A DNA stretch of 61,703 nt, counting the filler, from Dugesia japonica (Eukaryota): NCBI GenBank assembly GCA_001938525.1. It is 6 parts of 6 records of this genome, joined end to end, with 100 filler letters (N's around TTAATTAATTAA, not from the genome) between each part and the next. Parts side by side here need not be neighbours in the genome. Positions count along the whole stretch, not along the records: positions 40,300 to 52,483 come from MQRL01601939.1; 5 more parts are not named here. One strand, given 5' to 3'. The notes under the pieces were generated by a model that saw nothing but the letters and a program-made list of their open reading frames with translations, did no database searches and was not told the origin of the DNA. Below, piece after piece: positions 3,338 through 59,953 of the stretch; positions within the stretch are counted from its first letter, which is position 1; the number at the start of each line of letters is the position of its first letter. The position numbers and the translations under genes are program-made.

Positions 3338-3369
3338 TTTTAAATATCTAGTAATTTAATAAGGCCTCA

Positions 3370-3913: not shown

Positions 3914-3932
3914 TATTTTTAAAAATGATAAA

Positions 3933-5583: not shown

Positions 5584-6207
5584 TAATCATTTGATTAGTT
5601 ATATCTTTTGCAGACCTAGGTCTTAGGTGTTGTGACACTGTCATTCTATTTAAACCTCCTCCAACTAATATTTTGACTTTCACGGCTAATTTAACTAAAG
5701 CTCTTTGAATCTTTTCTTTAAATGAGGGATTTTCAATATTATTTAAATCATGAATTAAATTTACATCAGCAATATGTCTATCTCTTAAATCTTTTGATTC
5801 ATAAGCAATATCGTGTTTTAATGTTGCAGGGTCAACTTTATTTATTGGTTCTTCTCCTGGTAAATATTATTATTTTCATCTAATCTAATATCTAATCTTG
5901 TATTTGGTCCAGTATAATTATGTCTAAATAAATGTCTTTCACCAGGATATTTTTCAGTAATAAATGGTTTTAATAATAATGAAGTATTTTTAGAAGATTG
6001 AATATCTCCACCAGTTTTCTTCCAAGGAAATTTATTAACTACGGATTTGTCAAATTCTTTTAGTTTATTTGATGACGTTTTTATAATTATTTTTCCAACA
6101 GGTGAATTAAGATTTCTAATATGTTTATCTGTTTTTTCATGTCTAGTTTTATGTTTAAGTAAAGTAGAAGAATTACAAACATTAGAATACCAACTTTGTT
6201 CATTCAT
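5555..6207 (-). pseudogene. Parvovirus-type phospholipase A2 domain protein (PLA2X-like)
   Basis: Ca-loop HNYTGPNT and, after a frameshift near 5860, PINKVDPATLKHDIAY..RHIAD with an intact HD dyad. Confidence 0.85.
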
Positions 6208-6239
6208 TTTTATAAAAATTAGGCATCTCCTCTAACATC

Positions 6240-7468: not shown

Positions 7469-8699
7469 TTTCTTAAATTCAAAAAAAATAAAAGGAATTT
7501 ATATTAATTTATTTATAGTAACTAAAAATAAACAAGTGTTTTATTTTTATTTAAAAATTAGCATACAAAATATGTTATTTTTAATTTATATTTGATTATT
7601 TGTTTTTATTAATTTAATAAATAATTAATTGATGTTTTCAACGAAAAATAAAAGAATTGTTTAGTAGAAATATTAATCTTTTTAATCTAAATAAAAATTT
7701 TATCAAAATCATTAATATCAAAATTATATGCAAATAACTTTGTTATTATTTTAAAACATGAATATTACATTTATACAAATTAAAGTTTATATAATTAGAG
7801 AGTTTGTTGAAGTAGAAGGCCCTCGATGGATACAATCTCTCTAAAACTCGCTTCTGAGGCTTGGTGTTTGCAAGACGAAAAATTTAACGCCTTGTTAAAG
7901 AAGTTTATGATTCTGATTTACGTGTTTACTGTAACAGAAATTGCTTGCATGTAAATTAGATGATTAACGATGCATGAGAACGGTTCTTAAAAATAACTCA
8001 CCATCTCATTCATTGGAGGTTTGTCAATTTATAAATAAAATTTATGTTTAGAAAAAATATTTTATTGTTTTAATCAAGTTATATTTAATGTTTAATGTTA
8101 TTTTTATATTAATTTCAATATAATCGATAATTAAATGAACTTTGTTAAATAACTTTTCAATAAAAAAATATTTTTAGAACTTGAATAATTAAATTTTGAT
8201 ACAAAAATGTATTTTTAGATTTATTAAATTATTTTAATTCACTTTTTTATTATTATTTTAAGATTTATCATTTTTAAATATTTTAAAGCTAAAATTTCGA
8301 AAAATATAATTATTTTTTATTAATAAATTTTCTGTATAGTGTAGTTAATTTTCGGGATTTTCACTGATTTTATTTTCTCATTCAAAACTTTTATTTTGAT
8401 GCGAAAATTTGAAATTTATTTTAATTTCATTATTTTGTTTTATCCTACTGAAATTAATGAAAATTCGATTTTTCGATGGTTTTGGAGATAAAAAAATTTT
8501 AAAAATTTCAAGGAGCCTCAAAAAAATTTAGAAAATTGGTGTTGTTAAAAGGTCTGTTTTTGCTACTTTTGATTGAAAAAGCTTGAATTTTTCCGGTTCT
8601 AACATATTGATTTTATGTTAAAATAAGGGATGTATCCTCGAAGTACAATTATGGTCAGCATGATGACGTCAAATTGGGACGAAACTTTCAACATAGATA

Positions 8700-24390: not shown

Positions 24391-24479
24391 TTAAAAATCA
24401 AATACTTTAAAATTTAAATAAAAAAATACTTAGAAAAATATTTAAAAATAAATAAATAATCAATAAAAAAATAATTTTA

Positions 24480-25864
24480 AGCTTAAAAAAATAGCAGCTT
24501 CCGAGCAAAAATCTAAACTTAACTTAAATTATAATAAGATGTTTAAACATTATATTAAGAAAAATGATATATTAAGGATTTCTCTAACACCTGGTTCTAT
24601 TTCTAATTTAAATAAATCTGGAGACATTGTTTTCCAATCATTACAATCATTACAATATCCTTTAGATATTTGTAACGTTCGATTATATTATAAAATTGAA
24701 ATAGAACTTAGTACAGCTACTGATTATATAACTCTAGAAAATAATTTCTTTCCTAATTTATTTAGTAATATAAGATTGAAATTAGGTTCAACAGAAGTAG
24801 AATTAATTTTAAATCTAGGAGTTTATGCAACTATATTAAATTTTATTTTAATTAACGTTGATTATAAAAATGAATACGGAGAAATGGCTGGATGATTACC
24901 CGTTAATAGTAATAGAACTAACGATGTTACAAGAGAAGATATGAATACTAGTTATTATAAAAGAAAATTATTATAAAATGCTACAAAGAAATATGAAAAA
25001 TATTTTGATTTAAAATATTTATTCGGCTTTCTACAGATTTATGATAATGAATTATACATAATGTATTTATCGAATTAATATGTAATAAACAAGTGGAAGA
25101 TAAATTTCTTTTTTATGGAGTTGCTGTATTAATAGCAAAATTAAAGCTAATAATAATAGAATAATAATTTAAATAATAATAATAAATCTCCGTGGGAGAA
25201 AACTGGAGGAGATATTCAATCTTCTAAACTTACTTCATTATTATCATAGCCATTGACTTTTGAAAAATATCCTGGTGAAATACATTTATTTAGACATAAT
25301 TATACTGGACCAAATACAAGATTAGATATTCGATTAGATGAAAATAATTGTCCTTTACCAGGAGAAGAGTCAATAAATAAAGTTGATGCTGCAACATTAA
25401 AATATGCTTTGCATATAAATCAAAAGATTTAAGTGTTAAATTTATTTTAAGTATTAAATTTACATATTGCTGATGTAAATTTAATACATGATTTAAATAA
25501 TATAGGAAGTCCTTCATTTAAAGAAAAGATCCAAAGAGCTTAAGTTAAATTAGCTACGAAAGGTAAAATTTTTGTTGGAGAAGGATTAGAAAGACAGTAA
25601 AAATATAACTAATCAAAAGATTATTGAACAGGCTGCTATAGAAAGACTTTGATAACAACACTAAAATTATTGAGTCTCAAGAAGAACAATTAAATTGTGC
25701 AGCTGAATTACATCATGAATATAGAAAAACTAAAAGATTTTTAAAAGTACAAATACATAATAAAAATCACACATGGGGATGTGATATTGCTGATATGGCT
25801 AAAAATTCTACTGATGAAGAAAAATATCGTTATATTTTAGTTTGTATTGATTTATATACTAGAT
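24480..25864 (+). mobile_element. Second, internally deleted copy of the scaffold-A Polinton family (MCP - PLA2 - integrase N-terminus)
   Basis: Colinear with the reverse complement of 7468-5345: LNKSGDIVFQ, HNYTGPNTRLDIRLDENN, AAELHHEYRK, LVCIDLYTR. Deletion junction near 25165-25190. Confidence 0.92.
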
Positions 25865-26315
25865 TGTAAAATATAGTCACCTTGATCGAAATTGATCAAG
25901 TTAAGGTTAAATTCAAATAAAATAATTAAAAATAAAATTAAATTATAGCAAGCGCAGATTTGTAACGAGTCTGAACAACTGCTTTTTAATAAAGTAAAAG
26001 TTTTCCAGCAATTCATTTATTTGATTAAGACGTTGTGCTTAAAACGGCGAAGGCCAATGTTTGTTTATTTTTGCTAAGTCAAATTCTTGAAATATTTTCT
26101 TTATCTTCATAAAATTGTAATGCCAAGTAAAGGCTCGTAAACGTTAAATAATAATTTAATTAATTGGAAATAAAGTATAGTCATTTATCGTGTTCTTATG
26201 TAAATTTTTTTATTATTTATTTATATTATCAAAACTATTAGACCTTTTATTAAAGCACAGATTGAAATAAGTTGTCTTCCTTTCAAACTCTCTTAATTTA
26301 CCGCAACCGAAAATT

Positions 26316-30799: not shown

Positions 30800-31650
30800 T
30801 TCGATGGCGAATATTTTAGCGGAATACCGGAAAAGTTGGATGAATTTATCCAAAATTACAAAATTTATGCCAAATCCTGTGGCTGGGACGAGGAAGCAAA
30901 AAGAAAACGATTACCGGCTTACTTAACAGGAGTAGCCAAATAATTTGGGACCATACTAAGGTTATGAAAGCCATTCCCAATAAATGGGAATTAGTAGTGA
31001 AAATACTAACTGAAAATTTCCAAAATTTAAAGTTGACTGGCGAAGATTTTGAACAATTTACCAATCGAAAACAACAACGAGGGGAAACTCCACAAACTTA
31101 TATGATGGAACTCAAGAAGCGCGGAAAACTGGCCTTAGGAGATAAACTGGAAGACAGTCAAGTGTTAGCTATATTTTTAAATGGATTACGCGACGAACAC
31201 GCCAAACTAATAGTAAAGTTGAGTAAGCCAGTGACTCTACAGGACGTTCTTGCCACATTGCGAATTGTAGCAGATAGACCGTCAGAACGAATATTCAAAG
31301 TAGAAGGACAGACAGAGAAATATAATCTAACACTCAATCAATGATGAAAATCCTGACCCCAGGGCAGGAACGGAATAACAGGAATGATAGACCTAACTAT
31401 CCCCTAGGAGATGGTGGAGAATATAATGCACCGCGGAACAGTTGGCTAAATAACCGGGATATACAATGTAATTCCTGTGGAAGAAAGGGGCATATAGCCC
31501 GAGATTGTACAAGTAGAGGCAATAATAATAACAACAATCGATGTTGTACTTATTGCAAGAGAACCAACCACAATGTAGAAATGTGTTTTCTGAAAAATCC
31601 AACTGTCTGTTATAAGTGTAATAGAAGAGGGAATATGGCGAAAGAATGTC
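30800..31650 (+). pseudogene. Gag capsid domain and three zinc knuckles
   Basis: FSGIPEKLDEFIQNY..GWDEEAK..LPAYLTG; RKQQRGETPQTY; FLNGL; CNSCGRKGHIARDC, CTYCKRTNHNVEMC, CYKCNRRGNMAKEC. Confidence 0.9.
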
Positions 31651-34249
31651 CAAGCGGAAATCAAACAAATTATAATCGCAATCCAAATACAAATCTGGAT
31701 AATTTAATGCAGGAAAATGAGAGATTAAGTCAACGAGCAAACCAAAACAAGGAACAAGTCAACTTAGTGCATCAGAATACTTTTGACAACGTTTACTACA
31801 AAGTTCAACAAGAAAATGATTGGCTCAAATGGCAAAATCAAGATTTTCAGGTACAGCAGGAGAGACTAGCAAAAAGGAACTTGCTAAACAAACCACACAA
31901 GAATCAATGTAATATGGTCAGAACACATAGACAGATTTATATCCAACATGACGAAACAACGGAGGTTACCGAAATGGAGGATACTCGGAAACGAATACTG
32001 ATTGCATCACCCAAATTTGAGTGAACCAATGAAATCATCTTTAAAACAATAGAAACATCAACGTAAAACACCGGAAAAAGGCGAGTGACGAATCAGTTAC
32101 TTCGGTTATACCAACACCCACAAGTACATGCAAAAGTAAAAGCCAACTGGCAGAAAATAATATCGGATTACATCACCGAGCTTTATAAAGAAACTAAGTT
32201 AGAAGATTACGAATTCGAAATTCAATATGTATGGCATAATAACCCGAATGGCATTCCGAAACGATTAAAGCTATCGCTAAAGGGATTGACAGTTCGACAC
32301 TTGAAAGAAGTCCTTAACGAAATTAAATGGGGCGAGGTAAACGGTATCAAAGATATGAAGGTAAAACCGTTTCTCGAATTACCACCGTTTAATGATAAAC
32401 AACAATGGAATTAAAAGTGGAATAGGCATAGATTACAAATAGGTAATATAGGAATCAATATTCTTCCAGATGATAAGAATCTAATTTATTAGGGGGCACG
32501 ACCTCATGAAACAACAGTAATCAAATTGATAAATTGAGGTTTGGTATTCAGACCACAAATAGTAAATCAAGAAATAGAAACTGATGAGTTATATCATAAT
32601 CTCGAGGAAACATTCCTAAAGGAAATAGTTTCCACCAAGGCTCAAAACTACTTACGAAAAAGTTTTGAAAAAGTGATAGTGATGGACTATCCGAAGATGG
32701 GACAAAATGAAGCCTCACGATTATCATTAGCTCGAATTGATGAGATACTAGTAGCCGCCCAAAAACTCCATTATACAATTAAGAGGAATGTATACCTAAA
32801 GTTAACTAATCGATTGGTAGAGTTATTGGAAGTATAAAACTGGTCACTAATTTTGAAAGTGACTGGCTACCAGTACATTATGATTGGGTCATATCCAACA
32901 TTGGATTACCAGATTACCAAGTATGGTTGTATAAGCCAGAAGGAAATATGAAACTGACACTCGCGGGATTAATGATAGAAGATCTGGAATCGGCGCTTAA
33001 TCAAGCAGGCTATCCATTCATAACTGATAAATACGGATGTACTCCAAGTGCTATAGTGAATTTTAATGCCAAAAATAGCCATCTATATAATTTTTGGGTA
33101 AAACCAAGTAAAGAAATTGAAATTGTAATATTGAACAAACACCCAGGTATCGACTATGACATATGGGTAACGAAAACCGGAAGATCGGCCCTAGAAATCA
33201 TGGGAGAAATGGAATATCTATATAAACAAGAAGTAGAACCTATTAAAATAAAGATACTTTCCACAGTTTTGAGAAAGAAAGACAAACTGACAAAGGAGAA
33301 AAGGAAGCAGTTATTGATGATGCGTAACGATTTTCTCAAACAACGATTAGAGAGAAGAGAAGGTAAATGCAACATAATATGGATGCAGCAAATGCCGGCG
33401 AGAGAAGTAGTAGCGATGCGTAAAGTGGAGGAAATGGTTAACCAAGTACAGATAGAGAAGGAAAAGTTACCCCGAGAGACGTATTAGATGATAATGAATA
33501 GAATCTACGACATATATGATGGGTTAGAAATATCTGAAGAAATCGAGGATCAATGGCTCATGATTAGACAGAAGTATGCCGAAGAAATATTGGCAACTAG
33601 CAAATTCAGGACTATAAATTATATTTGAATATAGGTAATTTGAATATAGTGACTAAGTATAGCCGATTAAAGCCGCAAGGAATAACCATGATGGATTTGA
33701 TGGATACAGTTACCGATAAGTGACAAGAACATGGATTAAACATGGTACCTCTATTCATAAACGGCAAATTGGTCGAGACAGATGACGAGGACAAACACAT
33801 ATTCCAATGCCATGCAAAGCCCGGAGAAATATGGGAGTTAGATGTAGAGAATTAGCCGCGGACAGCTCAATCATCAGATCTTGAGGAACGAATGGAAGAG
33901 ATAACAGAATTATACGTATCCGAGGTATTGGCGGGTATAAAAGAACAAGTAAAAGAAAATCAGAAAATACAGAATATTGATAACCTACCAATAATTACCA
34001 CAAAATCAGTTGAATTTCCGGTAGGGACACCGACAATACGTGATATTCGGATGAACTACACGAAACCAATAACTGAGGAATCCGCCATGTTCCACGCTAT
34101 CAACGATCTACTAAGAGTAACACGGGAAACTCGACCTGTTTCCTGCGGGATTTGGCAACCTATGGTCAACTCAGCTTGTGGGCTCGAGCACAATGGTGGA
34201 AAGAGAAAACCTATATGAAGAGGAAGTACAAAATACATCCACTATATCT

Positions 34250-34430
34250 GACTATTCCATCAGAGTCAGCCTCCTCAGCAAAGGTGGAAGCATAAAGAAG
34301 GTGGATATGATAACCTTGGAGGGATTAACTATCCAACATGTTAAAAAACCAATCAAGAAATGGTTATGGCCAAAATCGCTCAAGTCATATAAAATGCAGG
34401 CGGGAGCAACAATAATCATATTAGCCAAGA
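34250..34430 (+). pseudogene. Ubiquitin-like domain (internally shortened) in the polyprotein
   Basis: TIQHVKKPIK resembles ubiquitin TIENVKAKIQ; KSLKSYKMQAGATIIILAK resembles RTLSDYNIQKESTLHLVLR. Confidence 0.5.
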
Positions 34431-35570
34431 AAGAGTACCACATCTTTCTACATGATATTAAACCAGGGGAGATCACAGAAATTAAACTAACGCCGCGAAA
34501 AATAACAATAGATATACCGATTCCAATACCTGATACAGATCAACTCATATTCAACATGATGAGCCTATATATACAGAAAATATTACCGGTGGAGAATGAA
34601 CGCCTCATAATTACTTATGGGGAAAACATAGTCAAAGTAAACATGGTTAGGAATAACGAGTTCGATGCCACAGATCCAGCATCAAATTAGGAGGAGGAGG
34701 AAGAAGAAGCCGCAGAAGACACAGTCAATTCCAGACTTTTACCATTTAAACAAGAATTTGTTGGTCCTTTCAGTTATCCTCAAGCAGAGCGTATATCGAA
34801 GATAATTTCTGATTTTTGCTTTTTCTGGAAAGGATATCTAGGGCAACATTTTGGAAGGCATTAAATTTACTGGTGAACTTGGCGAAGTATACCGAAATAG
34901 CAAGGGAAGAATGTGACAAATGGGAATCAGTGCTCAAGCAGTATATTAGTGCAGTGAAGACAAATGCCAAGGGAGACGATTTCCAGGTCACTATAGAATA
35001 TCAGACACCAAACAAAAAACTCAGAAAGGAACCGAAATTGGCTGTAATGCATATACCCCATTTCAACAGTACATCAGCTGTGGAATTGCAGGAAATCATA
35101 GAATCGTTGGATATAGCTGACCAGCAAAACGGCTAAAAATCACAAACGTTCCGAGATTCCCGATAAAGTTCGAAGGTAAACAACATTTAATGGACGTAGG
35201 ATTGAGACCAGGTCAAAATACATTTCTCCAAATACAGAAACCGGAAGATTACACGCCAGTCCCAGTAAAGTCCATGAAAGAAGTATTAAAACAACAAAAG
35301 GATTTATATGAACAAAAAATCATCAGTTATAAACTGTTTGAAGAAGTCGACGATAGAACAATGGAGATAAATATTGAGTTATGGGAAGACAGTAAATCAT
35401 GGGAAAGTTTGGCACGGGCAATAATGAAAATACTCCTGACTCTGGAAGAAAACTTGGAACTATTAAGAGATAACAAAGTCATAAAACTAATCCTGAAATT
35501 GAATCAGCCACGAGCTATAAGCCGTATGCCAAAGGACGCAATGGATGCAATATTATATTAAGCAGTTCGA

Positions 35571-35855
35571 ATGATAACTATCAAAGCAGTCACCATAATA
35601 ATCAAATTTCCAGATGAAAGCGAAATTCATTGCCAGGTCCAAATGAATGACCCATGGTCTAAGTTACGAAGGAGGATTATAAACTTTATGAACCAACAAC
35701 GTAACCTTGGTAAGGCGGGAACCAGAGTACAATCACTATTCCAGGAAGACAATATAGTACTCTATTACAACCAAGTAATAGAACCAGACCAAATGAGGTT
35801 GCCAGTGAAATATATGGGGGTATGGCCAGGTACTCAATTAAAAATTTACGTAACT
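35571..35855 (+). pseudogene. SUMO-like beta-grasp domain in the polyprotein
   Basis: IIIKFPDESEIHCQVQMNDPWSKL resembles SUMO1 [40 protein letters not shown] resembles TPKELGMEEEDVIEVY. No terminal GG. Confidence 0.6.
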
Positions 35856-37055
35856 GCAAAGGATGAAGAGAGACGGAGACCACGGTTCTCAGAGGAAAAA
35901 TGGAAACAGGAAGCTAGAGGAGTAGTAGAATATTATATAAAAGAAATACATCCACTAGTATTCGCAAGAGCCAAACTCCCTAGACAAGAACAAAGTAAAC
36001 AACGAGTGGAAATGGTAGCACCTCTGACCAACACACCAATCAAAGATGAAAAGCCAGAGGACAATTTACCAAAATTATTTGAATTGTTAGTGGGGGATAA
36101 GTTAATAAAGCCAGAAATAATACATCAATCCAATATAGTCTTACAACAAGATCTGCAGTTAAGATACCAGTATATAATACGATAAAGCACTTACGAGACA
36201 AGTTACCATATAAACCACCATACAAACTCCTAGATGAAGAGGGAATAGTGGAAGATACCACCCCAATTGGGCTAATGAAAATAGATTTAGTCAAACCCAA
36301 CACGTTATGAATTTTTTCAGAACTAGGAGGTACCCTTACTCGGAAAGAAGCGGACCCCTATAAGGCCGCAGATAAGACAAGACCAATAATGGGAGAAATC
36401 TCAGGTATGTTAAAAGCATATAAACATCGTACACAATTAGCGGCTATCCAAAACTTAAGACCTACCATAGATCAGTCGGGAAGTACGAAAACTTCTCGAG
36501 AAACAAAAGAAACCCCTAAAACAAGCCAAGATTGTGAGCGTGAAATATTCGGATATCCATCAGCAGATGAATTAGCAGAAGATAAAAATGAATTGCCAAT
36601 CACAAGATATTGACCTCCAACTAGGAAACGTGAAGAAATAAAAACCAAAGAGCCAACACGACGTAAAAAATTAATATCCTAGCAAGGTAGACTTTGACAA
36701 GGAAGATGTATTAGAAGAACAACCATTATCGCCAATATTGAGTAGAATAGCAAAAGAATTGCCATCCTCGGTATTGGATGACTTGATGGATACAAACCAC
36801 CCNNNNNAAATGGAAAATCCTATAGAATTAGAAGAAGAAGAAGTGCCACCAAAACCCTCACGCACCAGTGTGGATGCAGAAACAATTACTGAACCTCGAA
36901 ATAGAGGCAGACCAAGAACAAAACCTCCAGGAAACCCAGAGGAGGAAGAAGCATTGAAACAAAAACGATTAACAGCATCAGTAAACCACCAAACTAAGCT
37001 ATTAGCAACGATATCACAGGAAAGATACCATGAGAGTTCAGCGGATGATGACATG

Positions 37056-37457
37056 CCAACCGAAGTAGTAATACGGCAATTATTGCTAATGCTTTATCCA
37101 GAACTTAAGATATGGATTGGTAAATTCCAACTATCNNNNNNNNNNNNNNNNNNNNCAAAGGAAATAGAAGCAGCCATTAAGAAATTTCCCGCTACTAAAG
37201 GTACTAGTCATGGCACAAGAGACAGCTTAGAAGGAATAATGGATGAGTTATTACAGGATCAGCCATCGAAAGGAAGAATAGTGGTATCTATAGCCCATTT
37301 AATTAATCAAACACACCTATCAATCGCTAGAAGCAAACCATCAAAAAACTTCATTCTTAGTAAATTAACAATAGTGGATCTAATGCAGAACAAAATCGTG
37401 CCGTTGATAAAGCAGCATGGAGGATGGAAAAAGTTTATTGAGGCCATATGCGTTTAG
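37056..37457 (+). pseudogene. Bcl-2-like domain in the polyprotein
   Basis: BH1-like IMDELLQDQPSKGRIVVSIAHL (motif core ~37266) and BH2-like LIKQHGGWKKF (~37404-37436) at plausible spacing. Confidence 0.75.
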
Positions 37458-37499
37458 CCCCAATCATTTCATGAAAATGCAACTAGAGTAATCAGAATT

Positions 37500-38820
37500 G
37501 TTCCGGATCAAGCAGCAGACGGATCATGTAATACAGGTACCTCAACGCTAACTTACAAAGTAGACCATCAGGACTGCAAGTTAGCTCATCTAAAAGAGGC
37601 AATGTTCAATGAATACCAAGGACAACGAGCTATAGCACCTATTGATCAAACCCCAAAAAGAGGGTAATGTAAAGGATAGGATAGATAATTTCAAGGAAAC
37701 GATAAGATCAGGTCCGAGATCATACGATCAGCAATGTCACACAACTCTCACGGTGCTAATGTCCTCAGAACAGGATGAGACCATCTGATTAATCAAAGGA
37801 AATTATATGTCTAAATGTGGACAAATAGTGTATAAAACAAACTATAAAGGAATATTCGTATCAGAACATCGGATAAAAACCGCACAAGCCGCAGTAATGT
37901 CACAAGATATCAAACTACATCTATTTGCTAATAATCAAATGGACAATTTATTCCACCAGATGCAGGATACCATCGAACGAATGTACCACGACCTCATACA
38001 AAATGATTGCACATTAAACAAAGAAATACTGAAGACAAAGTTAGCAATGGCAGTTANAAATCCAGATAGTGTCACCCCGTTATTTACTCTGGAAAAAGGA
38101 CAATTTGGTCGCGTAGTAGGAGAAGTAATGTACCTAAATCAATGCAAGTCCGTAGATGCAGAGTTTTCGTCTAATCCCAAATATTGCTATAATGAAATAG
38201 AAATTATCCATAAATATGAGAAGCGTTACGTACAACCTATTATTCGAATAATATCACCACTGGGTTATAAGCCAAATATCATAAATTGCTCTAATGTATT
38301 TGGACCACAATATATAATGACAGATGGTTCATGGATAAGATTCCCACAACGAATGGCAGTAGGAGTCGAACCACGAAAATTCTCAATGCTACGGTTAAAT
38401 GGAGGTATGCAATTCACTCCAATTGATATAAATAAAGGAGGAATCTATAGCAAGGAAGATCTAGAGAAAGCTATGGAATATATGCTGTTTCCAGTTTGAA
38501 GGATGCAAATTCTATCGAATATAGTGCAATTAACCAGTGGAACCAACATAGTCGGACGTGTAAATGACGATGCACTCTTGTCAGCAGATCATTTCCAGAA
38601 AGCCACGGAAAACGTCATGCGGAAAATGTGGGTACGATTCATAATATTTGGGCAGGCAATGACAGGATTGCTGGGAGTAATGTTAATAATTTCGGTAGCA
38701 CGAGTAGTGATTACCCAATTGTTTTCCTGTTTCGACATATACAAAAGAGAAAAGAAAGTGAATTGGAAAATAGTAACCGGAATATTTCCATTCTTAGCCA
38801 AAACCATGGTGCTTAATAGT
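37500..38820 (+). pseudogene. Chuvirus-G/herpes-gB-like (class III) envelope glycoprotein, central and C-terminal part
   Basis: KCGQIVYKTNY..IFV; a long helix ending NDCTLNKEILKTKLAMA.NP; GQFGRVVGEVMYLNQCKSV; CYNEI; GIYSKEDL; transmembrane segment FIIFGQAMTGLLGVMLIISVARVVI. Confidence 0.8.
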
Positions 38821-39419
38821 CACTCTAAAGACATTTACAGGGTAAAACGATTTATTCGGAAACACGGACAAATAAGAGGATCGAACAAGGAAGTCATAAT
38901 GCAACTTTGGTTGTTGTGTGAAGAAATGAGCAATGCTAAAAAGAAAATATCATATTTCAGCCAATTCAAAGAAAGTTTTAAGAACAAAAGCGAAAGTAGT
39001 AGCAGCAGTGATGACGATATAGGAGAAAGCAGTGGAGCGCCACATGTACCCAGTTATAAAACCACCATGGAATACGATACAGAGTTTAAAAGACAACAAT
39101 ATGAAAAAATCAGTAAACAACGACTAAGAAATGCATTAAAATTTGCAGGAAATGAAAATACACCAGCACCAGCACAAATGTACTATAATGCCTATCCACA
39201 ACATGATTGGCAAACCATGAATCCATAACCACAACAGGTATGGGCACCAGGTCCCATGTACAACACCCCTTATATGAGTCCACCACAAGCTCCCAATATG
39301 GCATTATTAACAGAAAATAATCTATCAACTATTGACAGAAGAACTACGGACCAAAATTTGCGTTCTCCAATTAACCACATCACCGAAGATGATAAATTAG
39401 AAACCCAAACCGTATGTAT

Positions 39420-39770
39420 GATGATTTCTCAGAAAGCGAAACTATTACAAAAAAGGATAAAAANAGACGGAAGATGGGTAATAGCCATTATCGATTCCGG
39501 AGCAAGTACAACGTTAGTCCACAAAAGAATATTAGAAGATTATCGACAACTCCGATTTACCATTATTAAAGGAGTTATTATCACGGCCTCTGGAGAAAAA
39601 ATATCACCTGTTGGGGAAGCAATATGTTCAATAGAAAGTGACGGAATCCGTCAATGGCATAAATTACAAATAATGAATGAACTAACTTTTGACTGCTTAT
39701 TGGGATTGGATCTCTTACCACGTCTATGCCCAGAAGGTATATTAGATCTGAAGAAACTAACAATACGGGA
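39420..39770 (+). pseudogene. Retropepsin aspartic protease 1
   Basis: AIIDSGASTTLV, IITASG, CLLGLDLL. Confidence 0.9.
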
Positions 39771-40064
39771 AAATCACGATCGGGAATATGCGCCTGTAGG
39801 TTATCAGAAAACTCGAATAATAACCAAACAAAAACGACCTCAGCAATAGAATCAACCAACACCCAACCGACAGCCGCGACTCTCATCAGGCAGAGGTGAG
39901 CAAAATGATTCCAATCAAGATCGTCGGAAAACTACCAACATATCCACCATGAAAAGAGACGATTGGATAAGGTTTCAGGAACGGGAACCAAAATGGAAAA
40001 ACAAAAAAACAACATAGCATAAATTGTAACACTTCAGATGTGGTATGCACAAGCCTCAGCGGCG

Positions 40065-40160
40065 GGCCTGTATTAACAATTATGGTTAAAATCAACGGTA
40101 GATCTACAACGGTTTTATTAGACACGGACAACAATCTCGTTATTATCAATAGAAGAAATC
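40065..40160 (+). pseudogene. Start of a second, degenerate retropepsin
   Basis: Manual translation PVLTIMVKINGRSTTVLLDTDNNLVII (DTG changed to DTD). Confidence 0.55.
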
Positions 40161-40199
40161 GCGATAACGGAATATAAAACATATTGCCCACCAATACCA

Positions 40200-40299
40200 N
40201 NNNNNNNNNNNNNNNNNNNNNNNNNNNNNNNNNNNNNNNNNNNTTAATTAATTAANNNNNNNNNNNNNNNNNNNNNNNNNNNNNNNNNNNNNNNNNNNN
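40200..40299. other. Artificial scaffold-joining spacer
   Basis: 44 N + TTAATTAATTAA + 44 N. Confidence 0.97.
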
Positions 40300-45764: not shown

Positions 45765-46742
45765 TTTCAATTTTTAAGTCTGTCAACTTTTGCGACGTCT
45801 TCTTTGCAACATGTAGTCAGGCATTATCATGCAAGTGGATGATTTCTTTCCTTTTGACAAATGAAGACTGTTTAATGCATAATTCTTTGTGCATTAATTA
45901 TTTTTCAGAACAGTATTTGTCTGAGTTATTAGTTTGACCTACTTCTAACAAAGAAAAATGTATGACTCCAGCTATAGACCACCAAACTGTCAGCATTGTC
46001 TTTTTTGGGTGTAAATATGGTTTAAGACAGTGTAAAGGAGGTTGATCGACATCTAACCATTGTGCAGAACGTCTATGATTGTGATTCATAACCAATTTTT
46101 CATCACAAGTGACAATGCGATTTAAAAAAGATTCCGATTTATTTCGATCCAGCAGCATTTGGCAAATTTTCAATTTTTGCAATTTTTGGGAGTAATTCAA
46201 TAAATGAGGAACCCATTGGTCCATCTTTCTTTCTTTCCAATGCCTTTCAAATGACGGGAAATTGTTTGACGACTAACGTCTAACGTTTTACTAAGTTGTC
46301 GTACTGATTGACTAAAGTTTAGTTCCACTTCACGTTTTACATCGTCATTGCTAATGACAACCTTGGGGCGCCCCCTCTCCATATTGACTTGGGTTAAATC
46401 ACCCTCTTGAAAATTTTCGAACCATCTCCAAAGTGTTCTTTCATTAGCTGAACCCTCTCCAAATACAAAGTTAATGTATCGGACAGCTTCTGTTGGATTA
46501 TGCTTTAATTTCTATTCATATAAAAATAATGTTCGCATTTATGTATTTTTTAGCTTGTGTTCCATGCAGTCTAAAAATAATTTAAATAAATAGATATTTT
46601 AAACAAATATTATATTATGATAATCAAACGTTCCACCTTCAAAATTATACATAAATAAGTTCTAAATCTTAAATATTACATAAATATATTAGTTTAAAAA
46701 ACGAGTTTTAAAATCTGACATTTCATATGTGACAACCTAATA
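45765..46742 (-). mobile_element. 3'-truncated mariner element (transposase ATG at 46565)
   Basis: TA + TIR TTAGGTTGTCACATATGAAATGTCAGATTT (46711-46742); GRP, WVPHLL, IVTCDEK, HPKKTML.VWW and LHDNA motifs. Confidence 0.93.
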
Positions 46743-47781: not shown

Positions 47782-49396
47782 TCTCTCCATACACAGAGTT
47801 TTTGTTTTTAATTTTTTTTAAATTTATTTTTCTAATTTTGTTTTAAAATTTTTTTAAAATTTATTTATTTAAATTTTTATTTTACATTTTTTTTAAAATT
47901 TCTTTTTGAAATTTCTTTTTAAAAATTCAAAAAATCATCAATATGCACTTTTTTGTTTAACTGGGAACGGATTTGCATTTTAATTGCACTTGTATTGTTT
48001 AAACAAAGAAAAAACAATTAAAACATGATAATAATCAAAGTAACACAATTTTAACCAATAAAAAGCAATACATACAAACTATTCATTTAATGTTTTTTAA
48101 CGCAGAGTATAAAAGCAAAGACATTTACTAAATTATCACTATTTTAACATGCAACAAATTATTGTGTTAACAAAAGATAATGTTATGACCTTTGCTGTAG
48201 ATTACGGAAAACCTTCAGAATTTCATGTGATCAAAATGAAATTCTTCAAGAGTTCAATAGTATATATGTTTTAAGTAATTGTATTCATTTTATTTTATTA
48301 TTTATATATTCATTTAGGAACTTGTGAAGATACAACGATCTTTCTATAGTTTGGTGATATCCGATATCGGTTCCAAAGACATGAATACTTTGAATTTATT
48401 ATTCCAATGAATAGAACCAACATTTACAATAAAAGATACAGTTTTCATCAATTATAATGATGTAAAATAGACTGTATTCAAATAATCTAAACAATATATG
48501 ATCCAGGTGGAAATACAAGGAGTCAAGAAAAATGGAAAGAATCTTAACTTAATTAATAGAAAAGTTAATTCTCCAATTTGGAAAATTCGAGAAATTTTGT
48601 AAATTTTTTATTATTAAAATAAAATTTGTCTCTTTTATTAACTCTTATAGTAATATTTAGCAAACAAATTAATTATATAGAAACTTATTTGTAAATAATA
48701 AAAAAAACTCTGTTAAATAAGTATAATAATTTATTAACTATTTATAAAAACAAGTCTTATTAATAAATAATTAAGTAAATAACAAACAATAAAAGTAATT
48801 TTCAAATAATAATTTCCAAATTAAATAAAACTTTGAACAAATAAATTATTCATAAAAAAACCTTTATGACAATTAAAACATAATTGAATAATAAACAAAG
48901 TAAGTAAAAAACAGTTTTTACTAACTAAAATTTATTAAAATTTACATATTGAGGATTGTCTTCTCAAGGAGAGAATACATACACCTATAACACTCACAAG
49001 CAAGGTGTTGGTAAATATCCTTGTTAAATTTCGATAACACGAATTGTAATCCTTCTTTTGCCAAAACTAGTTTCTTTCTAAAATGAATCAGCGCGATAAT
49101 ATCTAGAAATAAAAATTATAAATTATGAATAAAAGTTAAATTAAATTTTACTATTTTCATGAGTCAGATCTTCCTGGCCATCTGACTCCGCCTATTCGAT
49201 GCAAATTTTTCTAAGAGGTTCTACTTGAATTGGATTCATTTTTAAATAACAACTGATTAAGATGACAAATGTAAAATGTTATATACAATTTTCTGTTTAA
49301 CACAAATCGACCAATAAAAAACATGTAATTATCAAACATGGAAATGCCTTGTTATACTTGCATCATATTGATATATTGTGCATTCATGTTGCAAAA

Positions 49397-49840
49397 TTAA
49401 ACAATTAAATTATTTAAATCAGAAATTATATTATCTACATATCCTTGATAGGGTAGTGTCTTTATACCGAGTATTACAATTTTCCCCGATGAAAATATGT
49501 TAACACATACAGGATTATACATTGTAAGTCGTAATGCAAGGAAACATTCTGGTTCAAACCAACGTTTTGTCACTTTCGCTTATTTATACAAATTGATAAC
49601 TTGTCGTAAATTGATTACAATTGTTAATGATTGCAAACGAATATCATTAATATCGTACTGTAATAATTCCATTTCCAACGGTTTTTTTCATCCCATTATT
49701 CGACAACTTCCTGATTTAACGAATATTATTGTATATTTCCCGCCTTTGTCAACAAATTGAGAATGTTTATTGATAGGAAACTTCATTTTGCTTGTTACAT
49801 TTTGCGACGCTTTAGCTTTATAATTAATATTAACTAACAT
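49397..49840 (-). pseudogene. TATA-binding-protein (TBP)-fold protein, 147 codons with two in-frame stops
   Basis: Manual single-frame translation: MLVNINYK...YTIIFVKSGSCRIMG*...IRLQSLTIVINLRQVINLYK*A..WFEPECFLALRLTMYNPVCVNIFSSGKIVILGIK. This matches both TBP repeats. Confidence 0.8.
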
Positions 49841-49963
49841 TTTTAATGAAATTTAATAAATGAGTGTGTATATATACATATTTTTTAGAAATAAAATTAA
49901 TTGATTCATTTAAACAAAGAAAAATAGTATTATAAACAATGTATTAAATTACATCTATATAAA

Positions 49964-50535
49964 ATGGAGTTGAGAAATGATGCTGTTTATCAAATTGTCG
50001 GTCCAAGTGGTAGTGGAAAAACCTTGTTCGTATGCAAGTTACTAAAATCTAACTTATTTAAATCAAAATTTAACAAAATATATTTGCACAGAGGTGCAGA
50101 TGAAAAGCATGAGTTATCACAATCAGAACTTTGTAACATTAAAATGAAAATTATAAAGGGATTTGATTCTAATTGGAGCAAGAGATTGAAGCCGGGTGAT
50201 GTTATCGTAGTTGATGATCTGTATCAAGAGGGTAATAAAGAAAAAGACTTAAATAATTTATTTACAAAAATAAGCAGACATTGTATTGTGACTGTGATAT
50301 TTATTACTCAAAACTTATTCCATCAAGGAGTAAGTCATAGGACACGTAATTTAAATGTACAATACCTGGTTCTATTTAAAAATCCAAGAGACCAAACAGT
50401 TGTGTAATTTTTAGCAACAATAAATCTACATAGTTAATTTTTCTCAACTTTACACAACAATGTCCAGACGAATTGAGGGTGAGAACCAATATTTTCAATC
50501 TTGATATTGTTACTGTGTATAAACAAACTAAGTAA
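49964..50535 (+). pseudogene. Polinton packaging ATPase
   Basis: Walker A GPSGSGKT, Walker B VIVVDD, LFTKISRH..VIFITQNLF, LNVQYLVLFKNPRD. 3' part deleted. Confidence 0.93.
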
Positions 50536-50785
50536 TTATTATATTGTAAAATGACGAAACCTAAAAAAAATATAGTTGATCAGATCAAAATTATTCCTAA
50601 AATGAAGAAAGATAAACGATCAAAAAAGAATATTGTAAAAAAAAGAGTGGAAAGAGGAAACAAAGTAAACAGTTGAACATTTTTAAGAAACTTTCAAAAT
50701 TCCATGGTAAGAAAATCAAGAACATAAACGGAAAATGGACATCATTATAAACAAATATGGGTAAGTTATATTATTAAAGAATAAA

Positions 50786-51066
50786 ATGAAAATTCAACTA
50801 AGTAATTCATTTTTTACATCATTAATTAAATCGTCAAAATCAGCGAGAATGCAAATTTGATATCATTTCCAACCTTTGTTTTGGATGATTTAATTAAAAT
50901 TATTATAAATATTGTTCGCGAAAATGTAAATGTGAGCAATGATAGAAAGGAAGTATTGAAAAAAAATAAAAGAACGCTATTAACACTTGTAAATACAAAA
51001 AATAAGAAATTGATAAGGCGAATAATACGAGATAATCAAGGAGAAGTTTTCATCAAATTCATGTAA
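50786..51066 (+). pseudogene. Small basic conserved Polinton protein
   Basis: IIINIVRENVNVS..KEVLKKNKRTLLTL pattern, located between the ATPase and integrase. Confidence 0.5.
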
Positions 51067-51099
51067 TGGGCAAGCTGAAGCAGATTTGGACGGATGCAG

Positions 51100-51760
51100 A
51101 AAGTCCCGCAGGTTTTTTTTGCGTAGATAAATTAATAAAAGCAGCACAAAAAACAAAAACAAAGACAAAAACGTGGTTATCGGGTCAACTAGAGTAAAGT
51201 TTGAACAAACCAATGTTGAAAATATTTCCAACAAGAGCATATAATACGTTTGGTATTGATGATATATGGAAAATAGATTTGATGGAGATGATCCCATATT
51301 CAAAAATAAATAAAGGATACAAATATATTTTAACATTTATTGATGTATTCAGTCAATTTGCAAGAGCTATTCCAGTCAAATCAAAATCGGCTAATGATAT
51401 GGAAACGGCAATTAAATCAATGTTTAAAGATGGACATCCAGATAATTTACAAACAGACTTGGGTAAGGAATTTTACAACTCTAAAGTCAAAAGTCTTTTA
51501 TCAAATCTATCCATAAACCATTGTACCGTATTCTCTCTCTCAGTATAAAGCAGCACATGCAGAATGATTTAATCGCACACTAAGAGATGCTTTAAAAAAA
51601 TACTTTGTGTATACTGGCAATAAAATCTGGATAAATGTATTGTCAAAATTAATTCATATTTATAATCATTCAAGCCATAAATGTTTAAATGGAGCAAGAC
51701 CGGTTGATTTAAGTTCAAACAATGAACTCAAATTACGGTTATCGCGCGATCAAATCAAAT
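51100..51760 (+). pseudogene. Polinton rve integrase
   Basis: GIDDIWKIDL..NKGYKYILTFIDVFS..LQTDLGKEFYN..KAAHAE*FNRTL. Confidence 0.92.
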
Positions 51761-51799
51761 TATGAAGTAAGTTATCTATTTATTATCAAAGTTTACTTT

Positions 51800-52130
51800 A
51801 TTAGTTCTTTTCAGGCTAATCAAATTGGATCAAAATTTTTGGGATCATCGTGGTTGGGAGTTAGACAAACACCCATATTTTCCAGTTAATAAAGCCCTAA
51901 TCGTCATAATGATACATCAAATCTTGGTGGAGAACATTAATTAGCAGTTTATCATAAGCCTGAAATTATTTCAGTTTTTGATCCGCTTGGATTTTATTAT
52001 CCACATATATTGATCTCACATCTCTCAAAAATATTAAAGCCAATTGAATATAACAAAATTAGATTTCAAAATCCGTTTACAACAACATGCGATCAACATT
52101 GTCTATTGTGGCTTAAAAATCAACATTCTA
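51800..52130 (+). pseudogene. Polinton adenain-like protease, absent from the ORF track
   Basis: Manual translation: NDTSNLGGEH*LAVY..VFDPLG..EYNKIRFQNPFTTTCDQHCLLWL. Confidence 0.8.
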
Positions 52131-52483
52131 GCTGAAAATTGTCAATATGTAAAAAACATAAATCAACATTGTAGTTGAAAATGTATATGTTGTATGTGAA
52201 TAAATGTATTATATGAAATTATTATTTGATTTTATTTAATTAAAATGATAATTAAGTTGAAATATCAACAAATTATGTTTAAAATTTGTATATTATGCTT
52301 GCATCATAGTTGTTATATCAAAAATAAAATAATATTTATACAAATAAGTCTTTATTTATTTATTTTTAATTATTTTTGAAATATTATTTTACAAAGCTGT
52401 TAATTATGGTTTGTTAATTTCATCACTATGTCTTTGTGACTAATGTCTTTATTAACACAGTTAATTTCTAAAATATCTTACGT

Positions 52484-55589: not shown

Positions 55590-56460
55590 ATTGCCTTTTA
55601 ATAATAAAGCATAAAAAATATCCACCTCTTCCTGTTGTTCAACATGCTGCCTTTTCAAGTATTTTGATAACTTATATGGCTTCATGTTCTTTTTTTATTT
55701 CGGTTTCTATTTCATGAAGTTCAGCGTTATTTTTCGGAATCATAATATCTAAATTTTCATTTCTTAATTGATCATCGCCATAGAACCATTCTTCAATTTT
55801 ATATATTTCTGTTTTTTCTGTTGGTAAAATTATTTAAATATTTTCTTTTGTGATTACATTTATATGTTCCTCGCTAATGTCTTTGACGGCTATATTTTCG
55901 TCTAAAGCGAANAAAGTATTATTCATTGGCCATATTTTTCCATCAAGTAGCTAATATATTTGTCGAAAGCTTTGAATGTGCTTATGATAATAGATATATC
56001 ATTACCTTAACATTAATTTCTTTGAATGCATTGACAAGAGAAATGTTTTTATTTTCTATTGCATTCAGTATTTTACTTTTTAAGTTCTTTCAATAATACT
56101 TTTTTAAGCAAGAAATTACTCGTTGATCTATTGGTTGAATAAAGAATGTTATGTTTGGTGGTAAAAATTTGAGTTTTATGTCACTATGTTCTTAATCAAT
56201 AAAATGAGTTGATGCGTTATCAACTATTAAAACAGCCTTTTTGGCAATCCAATTTCCTTCAAGTATCTTTTCACACTAGGCACAAATTCTTCTTTAAACC
56301 ATTTTTCAAATAGATAGGAACTTATCCAAGCAGATGTCTGTGATCGGTAATATTTAAAAAGTTTCAATAAATCTAAAGAAATTTTTTTATTTGTTCTCGG
56401 TTTAGCATATTTACCAATGACAAATAGTGGAAGTTTATGATTTCCACTTACATTTGTACA
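55590..56460 (-). pseudogene. pogo/Tigger (DDE_1) transposase remnant
   Basis: HKLPLFVIGKYAKPR, SAWIS..FEKWF..EFVP, AVLIVDNASTH, FLPPNITFFIQPIDQ. Confidence 0.88.
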
Positions 56461-56899
56461 TTTTCCAAATTTAAAATAATTATATGATAATAGGATAAAG
56501 GTTATAATAACAAAACGCCATTATAATAAAAGAGTATTATTGTATAAGCTGTAATTATTAAAATAAAATTTTAGCAAATTAAAACAAAATAACTGAAAAT
56601 TATTGAATAATATTGTTAAAACAAAATAATAAGCTTATTAAACTCAGTAATAGTAAATTAACATAAAATAATAGTAGTATTATTATTATTATTTTAGGAA
56701 AGGGTTCATGATTATTAAATATTATTAATGAATTTATATATTATCTAAGTTAATTATTAGTAAATTAATTAAAAATTTTAATTCTTACAAGTATTAAATC
56801 CAATACCTGAAAGCGAATTAACTACATAAACCCTATAATTAATATTTTATAACATTTTTTACTGATTCAAGTTTTTTACTCACACTAATACTCTATATA

Positions 56900-58800
56900 A
56901 ACAAAATAAATTTTATGATTATTGTTTCAAATAAAGTTCAAACAAATTTATTGGCATCAAGGTGGTGGAGATGAAGCTGACTTGATTGATGGTGAATTTT
57001 GCAAGTTGAGAAAGATTACAATATTTTATGGATTCAATGATGATTGATTGAAGTGATTAAATGCTGGGGATATTTTTGTAATTGTTACTTGTTTCAAGAG
57101 GCAAATAAGTAGGCTAATATAAATAATCTCTTTACAAAAACCGCTTGTCGTGATAATGTAACTGTCATCTTCATCACACAGAATCTTTTTTATCAGGGCA
57201 TCGTGCATCGTACACTTAATCTAAAAGTCCATTATTTGGTTTCATTAAAGAATCCACGAAATCAAAACGTGGTTGATTATGTTTCTCTTCAAGCATTTTC
57301 TCAATATAAAAGATTTTTATCTGATACATTTCGTAATGTTACCACAAAAGCACATGGATATTTATTGATTGATTGCGTTCAACAATGTCCTGATAATGAT
57401 TTTCCATATGCATCGAAAATAATTTAAACTCTACATTTTTGACCATTATAAACAATTTGAGTACAATTTGATTCATTATTGAAATGGTTGATCGAGATAT
57501 TATTGCAATGTATGGGTGGAGATTTGCCATATTTTATCGGTAGTCAACAGCAAGATAGTGGAAATTGGTTGCATAGAATTGAACGAATTACAATTCCAAT
57601 TTTGCAGAAATTTTGACTTTCAATTGCAAAGTCAATGAGGCGCACAGCACTAAAGACTGTTGATGATGTTATAAGCAAGAAGCAGTCATTTAAGGAGTCA
57701 ATTAAAACCAATCAATGAATATGTTGCCGAATGTAAAGGAAAATGCATTAAATGCATTAAATGAGGTTGTTGATTGACAGCATGGTAGTGGTATACGTAA
57801 ACGGAAAAATTAAAAAACATCGACTTTAAACAAAAGACGACGTTTAGATGGAACCGTCTTTGACAAATAAGCATGTATGTCGAAAAAACTGAATTATCGC
57901 TTTTTGACCACAATATCCACAGGTCAAAGTTTAAAGAAATTTACCCAAAAGATTTTATAACCGGGTATGTTGGACAACAAATTAAATTCAATATTCTTGG
58001 TTCAGATAATGATCACTTGGATTTGAATGATACCTTGCTCATTATTAAAATTAAGACGGCGAAACATGATGGAACGGGTTTTCCATCGACTGGCATTACC
58101 GGCATAATTCCTTTCGATTATTTGCTTTAGAATATTCAATGAAGCATCATTAACGCAAAATAATGTTAAAGTGGAAGATACAAACGATACATATATGCAA
58201 AAGGTGGAAATTGAAGCAGCATTGTATTTTGGATCGGATACAAAGCCACGTTTCTTGAATCCATTGGTTATCATAAGTAAGGTGATAAAAGAAAAGGTTG
58301 GATTAAAAAATTTACAAAGCTTACGCTCCGTGGTGCACTTAATCTTGATTTATTGAATAACCAAAGTATTTGTTCCCTGGAGTTAATGTGACAACCAAGT
58401 AGACTAGAAATTAAAATTTGGACATCTGCAAGGATTGGAGCATCAAATGCACTTTACCCTTTCAAGAAAACAAAAAATCGTACATTTTACAATTCCAAAA
58501 ATTCACATGGGGAATATAAAGATAATATCTTTTCGGATCTGAGTTTACGGGGAAAAATCATTAAAATAAGCAAGTGGTGATTACGGCTAATTTTGCTCCC
58601 CATTTTCAAATTTTAGTTAAAAGTCGATATGCCTAGCAAGAAACGTTGATTGTCGAGAAAAAGATACTACTGATTTTGATATCGACTATACTGAAGCCTA
58701 TGTACAATTAATTATTTGTAACATGGGTCTGTTAAATATAGATCGCAACAATGGTAAACAATGAAGGAATTTCAAGACTCATGTTTTTCACATTTGAAAT
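56900..58800 (+). mobile_element. Polinton remnant related to the scaffold-E lineage (ATPase, core protein, major capsid)
   Basis: VTVIFITQNLFYQG..KNPRNQ (57130-57430); GGDLPYFIGSQQQDSG (~57515); MCP start KTELSLF..IKFNILGSDNDHLDLNDTLL (57873 onward). Confidence 0.85.
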
Positions 58801-59436
58801 TAAGAATTTTCAAGAAAATCTATGGTCTCTTAGTAGCTTAATCAAGAAATGAGATAACGTGCAAATGATCGAAGCGTCGGGCTGGCACAAGGGCTATTTT
58901 TACTTTTATTATGCGCACCGAACGACAACTGACAAGTTTATGAAAATCCTGGCACTTGTGATAGATAAAGTCATTCCCAGTAGCATTTGTGGCACTCAAT
59001 GCAACTGAAAACGTTGGCTATTACTGGTATAACATAAAGTTCAAATTGAAAGCATCGACATCATCATATCGTTATTAAAAATTCAATTTCTCTATTTATT
59101 CAATGTTAATTGAACAAGTATTTTTATGTGAAAACATTTTTAATTTTTGCATTAAATATTTTTTTTTATATATTTAATAACTTAAAGAGAGATGTTTTGA
59201 GAGAGAAAAGATCAGAACGATATTTTCATATCTACTAGCTATATTCATATTGTAAATACTGAAAAAGTTGAGAAATATGATCAAAATTAATTTTGTTTAT
59301 ACATTTATTTGCTCAATATTAAAAATATCTTTAGAATACGTTAACCTCAAACTAATTAGAAATAATTTTCTTGGTATTAAGAATTAATAAAACAAATACC
59401 TTAAAAATTTTCTTAAAAAAATTTAAAAAATCATAC

Positions 59437-59953
59437 ATTATTATCTAATGAAAATCTGTGATAAATTCCAGCAGGAATTATTAACAAATCTCCTGGTGAA
59501 ACCTGAATTCGAATCCATCCATCAGATATATTGCGAACATCGAGATATGCTGATCCATCAATTATAAATCTAGCTTGGTCATCTTCATGCAAATGTTCAT
59601 CGAATAATACTTTTGTCTTCAAAATATTCGAAAAATAAAGTTTTTAATTAAAGTAGTACCAGTTTTTCGAAGTCAGAAGTCTCGTATTTTTTTAAGTCGA
59701 TTAAATCCTCATTAATGAATCCTCTTTCGCTTTTAAGTTTCTGATAAAAACTCCCATCTTCTTCATAAGATTCTAAATTAATCTAATTGTATTAATTTAA
59801 ATTGAAATTTTCATTCATAATAAATATTCAGACTCTGAAATATTCAACTCCTGTAGATTCTTTCATTAGATCTAATGCTTGATAACTTGAAAACATTTCG
59901 GCTTCTGATATTTCATAGTTAGAATTATCTTTAAGATTCCAAAATTTAACCAT
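59437..59953 (-). CDS. ADI1: Acireductone dioxygenase (ARD/cupin); three exons seen, last exon not identified
   Basis: Exons 59953-59834, 59782-59660 and 59616-59437 join in frame across GT-AG introns of 51 and 43 bp. Motifs: [46 protein letters not shown]. Confidence 0.88.

Follow-up and report, generated by a model that had tools for sequence, protein, structure and literature searches.

The window analysed here is a 61,703-nucleotide stretch of Dugesia japonica DNA (GCA_001938525.1), joined from six parts. It contains a broken copy of a gene with the TATA-binding protein (TBP) fold that is borne by Polinton/adintovirus elements. The gene lies in a decayed element remnant with a packaging ATPase, a small basic core-like gene, an integrase and a protease (Table 1). 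The first-pass annotation had described a minus-strand frame of 147 codons with two stops, and this frame is present. All four TBP peptide segments quoted for it are found in it. The window copy cannot make a TBP protein.

Table 1. Features of the Polinton remnant around the TBP frame (coordinates along the window)
Feature	Position	Strand	Remarks
ssDNA-binding-protein-like gene, decayed	48108..48599	+	HMM match 48300-48599, E 2e-9
Mini-TBP gene, decayed	49397..49840	-	ATG at 49840, stop ending at 49397; 147 codons; in-frame stops at codons 51 and 87
Divergent spacer	49841..49963	.	123 bp; one promoter-like signal per direction
TCATT, initiator-like	49845..49849	-	Before TBP ATG; TCA[CT]T in 17/40 TBP upstream regions
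TATA-like GTATATATAC	49868..49877	-	About 30-37 nt before TBP ATG; assigned from sequence and class statistics
TATAAACA box	49931..49938	+	32 nt before ATPase ATG
A32/FtsK-type packaging ATPase	49964..50526	+	Pox_A32 E 6e-8; frameshifted near end
TATAAACA box	50518..50525	+	32 nt before a lysine-rich (basic) decayed frame starting at 50551
TATAAACA box	50746..50753	+	39 nt before core-gene ATG at 50786
Small basic core-like gene, decayed	50786..51063	+	Family HMM match 50857-51042, E 6e-16
rve integrase, frameshifted and shortened	51048..51768	+	rve E 5e-9; family HMM
Adenain-like protease remnant	51908..52117	+	HMM from related loci, E 8e-21

With its two stops replaced by X, the frame matches Pfam TBP (PF00352) over residues 67-128 (E 1.1e-8; 35.3 bits, cut-off 22.9). 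TBP chains in the PDB match it as well, the best being 1mp9 (E 6e-10). An HMM of 20 cellular TBPs scores the frame at 36.4 bits and the best of 1000 shuffles at 7.9; a chance match was rejected. It is the sole TBP-like frame within the window. In register, the frame keeps phenylalanine at the positions of yeast F190 and F207, two of the four that intercalate. The phenylalanine of the IIFVKSG segment is located one place before the F116 position. The initial estimate that about three of the four are kept fails for this copy but holds for the family, as described below.

The integrase and protease follow the ATPase on the plus strand, as had been claimed. Family HMMs match the ATPase in two segments (49964-50419 and 50422-50526). 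The core-like gene is pX-like in relatives, in one of which Adeno_PX gives a weak match (E 0.011). The protease remnant almost abuts the integrase. By itself it has no Pfam match; Peptidase_C5 matches the protease of a relative (E 1e-7). Most genes of the remnant are interrupted, and family HMMs found no penton, major capsid protein (MCP) or polymerase gene in this piece. The remnant stops close to a gap in the scaffold at 52484, and no terminal inverted repeats are among the longest repeats listed for the window. The single-stranded DNA-binding protein (SSB)-like gene is preceded by a canonical TATAAAAG and probably belongs to the same element as the TBP frame. In the spacer, GTATATATAC would be an early, host-type promoter of the TBP gene. 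TCATT, which fits the initiator consensus, is presumably its initiator.

The TBP gene is multi-copy and linked to Polintons

Contigs of two public runs were aligned to 48900-52400, giving 18,468 and 14,220 records. In run X1, the TBP gene has a summed depth of 1.8-4.8e5 and most of the ATPase one of 4.9-5.9e5. Left of 49250 the depth drops about 100-fold, and right of 52293 it is about 160. Aligned pieces bridge the TBP start and the spacer, and the spacer and the ATPase. This depth, which is not a copy number, shows that the TBP gene is carried along by the element, in very many diverged copies. Two RNA runs placed 45 and 1,155 reads over the locus, nearly all less than 95% alike, and about half of the reads continue into unlike sequence. 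Their strand bias has the same direction over TBP and ATPase, though these genes are on opposite strands. None of the listed sequence holders is on record as RNA.

Full-length homologues of 144-198 residues were recovered from 24 of 35 candidates, at 39-70% identity. At E<=0.001, exhaustive searching recovered 230 cluster representatives, of which 74 have E<=1e-10. The best 150 of the 230 were examined, and the bottom of this set includes a few cellular TBPs and unrelated repeats. PF00352 scores eight homologues at 40-86 bits. Family members are stand-alone proteins of 140-200 residues, in keeping with the minimal TBP first proposed.

A pattern search of metagenome contigs had 155 matches, and a relative is encoded at 55 of them. 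A Polinton core gene is present in 25 of these 55 loci, and in 9 of the 11 that are at least 4 kb long. Another 24 loci have only accessory genes of the same elements; the six with none are all 2.1 kb or shorter. Two loci of 12-13 kb (L012 and L013) carry polymerase, ATPase, integrase and capsid-type genes together with an intact TBP gene. Searching GTDB contigs by ATPase alone yielded four further loci. L056 contains pPolB, ATPase, integrase and capsid-type genes and an intact TBP of the window family. L057 has a different TBP, and L058 and L059 are fragments without TBP. The contigs of all four are filed in bacterial bins, but look like eukaryotic Polintons and are probably mis-binned. The polymerases of L012, L013 and L056 are about 1,080 residues long and have no PF03175 match, as described for Beta PolB; we take them to carry the PolB motifs. 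Genes of 400-430 and 340-400 residues occupy the capsid places in relatives. They have no Pfam match, and their putative capsid labels come from position and motifs.

Together with the read contigs, these loci confirm that the gene is multi-copy and linked to Polinton genes. We also looked for three contrary outcomes, namely a lack of a TBP-fold match, a single-copy host gene and a lack of Polinton linkage, and found none of them. Two earlier suggestions were revised. The gene is not particular to one lineage. The head-to-head arrangement of TBP and ATPase is real in the window, but a conserved layout was rejected, since gene order differs among relatives: the TBP gene lies on the same strand before the ATPase, after the protease, or divergent with genes between. 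The ratio dN/dS has a median of 0.24 (128 pairs from 42 intact ORFs) and of 0.17 in the 13 pairs with dS<1. The TBP family is under purifying selection.

Scans of IMG/VR with TBP, ATPase and MCP alignments found relatives in 0/33, 0/301 and 0/159 stretches, respectively. The IMG/VR scans and the GTDB ATPase search yielded no complete close relative without TBP. When the L057 TBP was the query, the only homologue among 68 candidates was that TBP itself.

A tree was built from 67 rows: 18 eukaryotic and 2 archaeal-type TBPs, the L057 TBP, and 46 rows of the family. These 46 are the window copy, L056 and 44 members drawn from the 117 that were aligned. A 100/98 branch separates all 46 from the cellular TBPs and from L057. 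The tree is unrooted, its bootstrap is not fully settled, and TRF2 and giant-virus (NCLDV) TBPs are absent from it, so it names no donor. The tree bears on whether the window frame is a retrocopy or pseudogene of host TBP beside a Polinton remnant. The copy is intronless and broken and lies in a repeat-rich scaffold, as such a pseudogene would. However, it is only about 20-25% identical to cellular TBPs, compared with 70% to element-borne homologues. The 46 sampled members are separated from the 18 eukaryotic TBPs, and the TBP gene is covered to a depth similar in order of magnitude to that of ATPase and integrase. A host origin of this kind is extremely improbable, and was rejected on the read depth, the 25 Polinton-linked loci and the tree branch.

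An SSB-type gene is the commonest neighbour. It is present in 35 of the 55 loci and usually adjoins the TBP gene. The fold of an SSB-type relative resembles T7 gp2.5 and the Enc34 SSB (Z 8.0-8.5), and ESM Atlas gave unnamed leads only for the SSB-like protein. By this modelled fold, the neighbour would fit an early replication module and not a transcription cofactor. No Pfam match to TFIIB was found in 18 cluster representatives and 43 further frames, which include 37 of the 46 unassigned ORFs of the loci. No herpesvirus-type partner gene was identified in these loci.

Cargo genes are also found near TBP, at L012:222-719, L017:4008-4316, L045:1710-2168, L052:1513-1908 and L024:1918-3327. Pfam assigns them to a ubiquitin-conjugating enzyme, a dual-specificity phosphatase, a RING finger, a C2H2 zinc finger and a leucine-rich repeat protein.

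The DNA-binding face differs from that of cellular TBP

The fold was predicted for P0002, a natural intact homologue (70% identical), with a pLDDT of 92. Foldseek gave 44 PDB matches at E<=0.001, and all those listed are TBP chains. In VIA-align, the model aligns to both TBP repeats over residues 1-150, with Z 11-11.8 and an rmsd of about 3 Å over 143-148 residues. The next unrelated row has a Z of 7.1. ESM Atlas returned TBP clusters for P0002 with a recognition value below threshold. Profile matches to repeat 1 have a probability of 97% for long forms, and of 77% over 25 columns for short forms. Homology of both repeats to TBP is established, and the family is predicted to form the full two-repeat saddle. 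The PF00352 match and the P0002 model bear out the TBP fold that had been proposed from peptide similarity.

We surveyed 117 family members on yeast numbering, 76 short forms and 41 long forms, at the DNA-contact positions tabulated in PMC12529657 (Table 1). F116, F190 and F207 are kept in 97-100% of members, and F99 is replaced by proline in 92-93%. V122 is Arg, T124 is Met, N159 is Ser or Thr, V161 is Thr or Ser, and L205 is Asn in 95-100%. Short forms have further substitutions, V71 to Asn (88%), A101 to Gln or Met, and I194 to Arg (88%). The replacements on the DNA face are conserved and mostly polar. In the minor-groove set of N69, V71, V122, T124, N159, V161, L205 and T215, only N69 is kept; V213 is largely kept.

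E186 and E188 are each present in 97% of the short forms, and in 71% and 100% of the long forms, respectively. In sequence, the acidic TFIIB stirrup (E186/E188/L189) is kept. The repeat-1 H2 segment is mostly 17-24 residues long in short forms, compared with 32 in cellular TBPs, and the long forms retain more of it.

The family therefore shares with cellular TBP the two-repeat saddle, F116, F190, F207, N69, G119, G210 and E186/E188/L189. It differs in its length of about 150 residues without an N-terminal extension, in the proline at F99 and in the replaced minor-groove residues. The short form compared with cellular TBP has 19-21 residues at repeat-1 H2 instead of 32 and a shorter H1, and the family forms a separate long branch. 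Judged by sequence, the family departs from a canonical TATA-binding TBP, since it lacks the full set of four phenylalanines and its minor-groove residues are changed.

Promoter-like sequences sort by gene type

Upstream regions of the 55 loci were de-duplicated. Of all 7-mers upstream of virion and packaging genes, ATAAACA ranks first; the choice of this motif was made post hoc. It is found within 70 nt of 31 of 61 starts, with 2.0 expected; the binomial value overstates independence, because many loci are related and share contig-name prefixes. Within 100 nt, it precedes 11/12 ATPase genes (ten at -31 to -36), 7/7 MCP, 5/7 penton, 5/9 core and 6/7 integrase genes, 5/6 of the genes before MCP and 5/9 of the C3 genes. 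Its distance from the ATG is about 35 nt at virion and packaging genes. None of four protease genes has it within 100 nt. Some SSB-type genes have it (2/4 in cluster C9 and 3/20 in C1).

Upstream regions of the TBP gene belong to a second class. One of the 40 contains ATAAACA, and 20 have a TATA-like hexamer between -60 and -22; counts for TCA[CT]T are given in Table 1. The SSB-type C13 and the first exon C5 resemble this class, with TATA in 6/6 and 4/6. The two classes of promoter-like sequence sort by gene type.

The box has a strict form. ATAAACA occurs 47 times in the sense and never in the antisense direction, GTAAACA is absent from 57 regions, and a T precedes ATAAACA in 33 of 45 cases. 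Where the box lies in coding ends, Ile-Asn is coded by ATAAAC in 17/23 cases, compared with 24/185 elsewhere, indicating that the box fixes codon choice there. These features also bear on which protein reads the box. ATAAACA fits the forkhead consensus, and a host forkhead factor or another viral protein could read it while the mini-TBP serves other or all promoters of the element. The box before a few SSB-type genes would agree with this. However, the strand bias, the fixed distance at ATPase and core genes, the preceding T and the lack of GTAAACA argue for a core-promoter element and not an enhancer site, and we consider a reader of this kind rather unlikely.

L056 was fetched after the motif had been defined and has seven plus-strand sites. 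They are located at -95 before the ATPase, -37 before the core gene, -36 before a Met-Gly frame, -76 before penton, -97 before the gene preceding MCP, -45 before MCP and -35 before a 41-codon frame. Its TBP gene has no site before it. The boxes of the window remnant are at similar places (Table 1; -32 ATPase, -32 basic frame, -39 core gene).

In contrast, ATAAACA precedes 0/8 virion and packaging genes in L057, whose TBP is a different one, 0/7 in L058, and 0/8 genes, with approximate starts, of a phospholipase A2 (PLA2)-bearing Polinton elsewhere in the window. A different motif, [AG]ATATAA[AG], is found before 5/8 L057 genes and 4/7 L058 genes in DNA of 25-27% GC, and is only a lead.

In L001, L012, L013, L028, L040, L045 and L056, the start of the integrase gene overlaps with a short Met-Gly frame that contains a Cys pair. 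In six of these seven loci, the box counted above for the integrase (TATAAAC) is located 31-36 nt before this frame. The frame possibly encodes a small lipid-modified virion peptide.

Discussion

The kept stirrup, the remodelled DNA face and the gene-class-specific box suggest a role for intact copies. We think it fairly probable that the mini-TBP is a viral late-gene factor that binds TATAAAC and recruits host TFIIB and Pol II. In a first step, host TBP/TFIID would transcribe the mini-TBP and SSB genes from promoters with TATA and initiator. The mini-TBP would then bind and bend TATAAAC[A/G]. Given the orientation of TBP on TATA, its remodelled first repeat would read the 3' half of the box, where the box departs from the host consensus. 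In a third step, the kept EPELFP stirrup would dock host TFIIB. TBP contacts TFIIA, TAF1, Brf1 and Mot1 through mapped surfaces, and loss of the repeat-1 outer helix may free the mini-TBP from these contacts. Whether Beta-PolB Polintons run their own early-to-late cascade in this way, through one 150-residue, TATAAAC-tuned TBP that recruits TFIIB directly, is an evenly balanced question. Several observations do not fit a late factor: the box is missing before the protease and present before some SSB-type genes, and the L056 ATPase box is at -95, not -35. In addition, the proline at F99 could weaken DNA bending.

The first-pass annotation had suggested that the protein either redirects host Pol II or acts as a decoy. 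Redirection gains support from the class-specific TATAAAC box, and the decoy becomes its rival. A decoy or host shut-off protein would bind TFIIB or TBP regulators, or compete on host promoters, and host TBP would read the box. The kept TFIIB stirrup, the lost intercalating phenylalanine and the changed DNA face are compatible with this. We take the C(-25) variant of the TATA box to be TATAAACG. According to the title of PDB entry 1qn3, a crystal structure exists of host TBP on a C(-25) variant, and host TBP may therefore read the TATAAAC box. However, the changed DNA-face positions are near invariant in 117 diverse members (95-100% at V122, T124 and L205), which is easier to reconcile with a new ligand than with loss of the old one. 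In addition, the parts that shrank are the outer surfaces that a decoy needs. We regard a decoy as unlikely.

The mini-TBP could also assist replication, integration or packaging by bending DNA at the element ends, instead of acting in transcription, as the frequent SSB-type neighbour might suggest. The TFIIB stirrup would have no use in such a role, and the clustering of SSB and TBP genes is explained if both share an early-type promoter. This role is quite improbable.

The late-factor reading places the family within a known theme of viral TBP mimicry. Beta/gamma-herpesvirus mimics (EBV BcRF1, KSHV ORF24 and HCMV UL87) also have a virus-encoded TBP fold, act with host Pol II and use a TATA variant before structural genes (PMC12529657, PMC4893493). 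They share polar residues at V122, T124, V161 and L205, as tabulated for ORF24 (PMC12529657, Table 1). They differ in being 550-900 residues long, in working in a six-protein complex and in having all four phenylalanines without the acidic TFIIB residues, which the same source reports lacking in ORF24. In vitro, EBV BcRF1 does not discriminate between TATA and TATT in binding, and it depends on five partners (PMC4893493). The family, in contrast, is a bare saddle of 140-200 residues with a TFIIB stirrup and a TATAAAC instead of a TATT box. Herpesvirus mimics give only weak structural matches (E 0.002-0.004).

The best BFVD matches are TBP-like proteins of giant viruses, asfarviruses, iridoviruses and nimaviruses (E 1e-6 to 1e-3), which differ in being only 8-20% identical to the family. 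Most of this group encode their own RNA polymerase. No RNA polymerase gene was seen in the 12-13 kb elements.

The elements share rve integrase, FtsK-type ATPase and adenain genes, and putative PolB and capsid-type genes, with the adintoviruses and Polintons (Starrett et al. 2021, PMC8502044). The legend of Fig. 5 in that paper labels a TBP in a virus with adintovirus-like PolB, so a TBP in a related virus is already in print. The sections covered do not discuss TBP, the main text does not use the word promoter, and the text of its Suppl. Fig. S2 has no TBP label. The literature covered on Polinton, Maverick, adintovirus and Polintoviricetes, mostly outside subscription journals and including part of PMC12220804, contains no description of the family or of the TATAAACA box.

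If the cascade is real, no smaller viral transcription switch of its kind would be known, and it would be convergent with that of herpesviruses. A dedicated TBP and late box would bear on how animal Polintons switch on capsid genes and on whether they act as autonomous viruses, and box-driven transcripts could mark active elements. The family may also represent a natural TBP with a changed sequence preference and stripped outer surfaces, which would bear on the minimal Pol II initiation scaffold.

L057 encodes a separate Polinton TBP of 185 residues (L057:11568-12122, minus strand) beside a PF03175-type polymerase. It scores 125 bits against Pfam and has a canonical DNA face, with four phenylalanines and N69/T124/N159/V161/T215 kept. 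Together with what may be a more canonical box, this TBP would mean that factor and promoter change together across Polintons. Two ORFs flanking it look PC4-like to us by eye; neither has a PC4 match in Pfam.

Additional elements in the window

A second decayed remnant of the same Polinton type is found at 56900-58800 (plus strand), with ATPase, the gene before MCP, and MCP. It has ATAAACA at 56897 and 57448 and no TBP beside it. The PLA2-bearing Polinton at 1300-7500 (mostly minus strand) is a different decayed element with a PLA2-like domain (Pfam E 4e-5) and capsid-type, integrase, ATPase and protease remnants. A partial inverted copy of it lies at 24470-25870, with 81-91% identity.

The region 30800-40200 (plus strand) is retroelement-like, with a CCHC gag-like ORF and about 5 kb of unassigned ORFs. 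Pfam identifies a fusion glycoprotein of Monjiviricetes type there (E 1e-49). The order is unusual, with a retropepsin-like motif lying downstream of this envelope gene. Remnants of Mariner, piggyBac-type and DDE_1 transposases and a host acireductone dioxygenase exon (ARD, E 2e-21) are located at 45900-46500, 12000-13800, 55900-56500 and 59400-59640, all on the minus strand.
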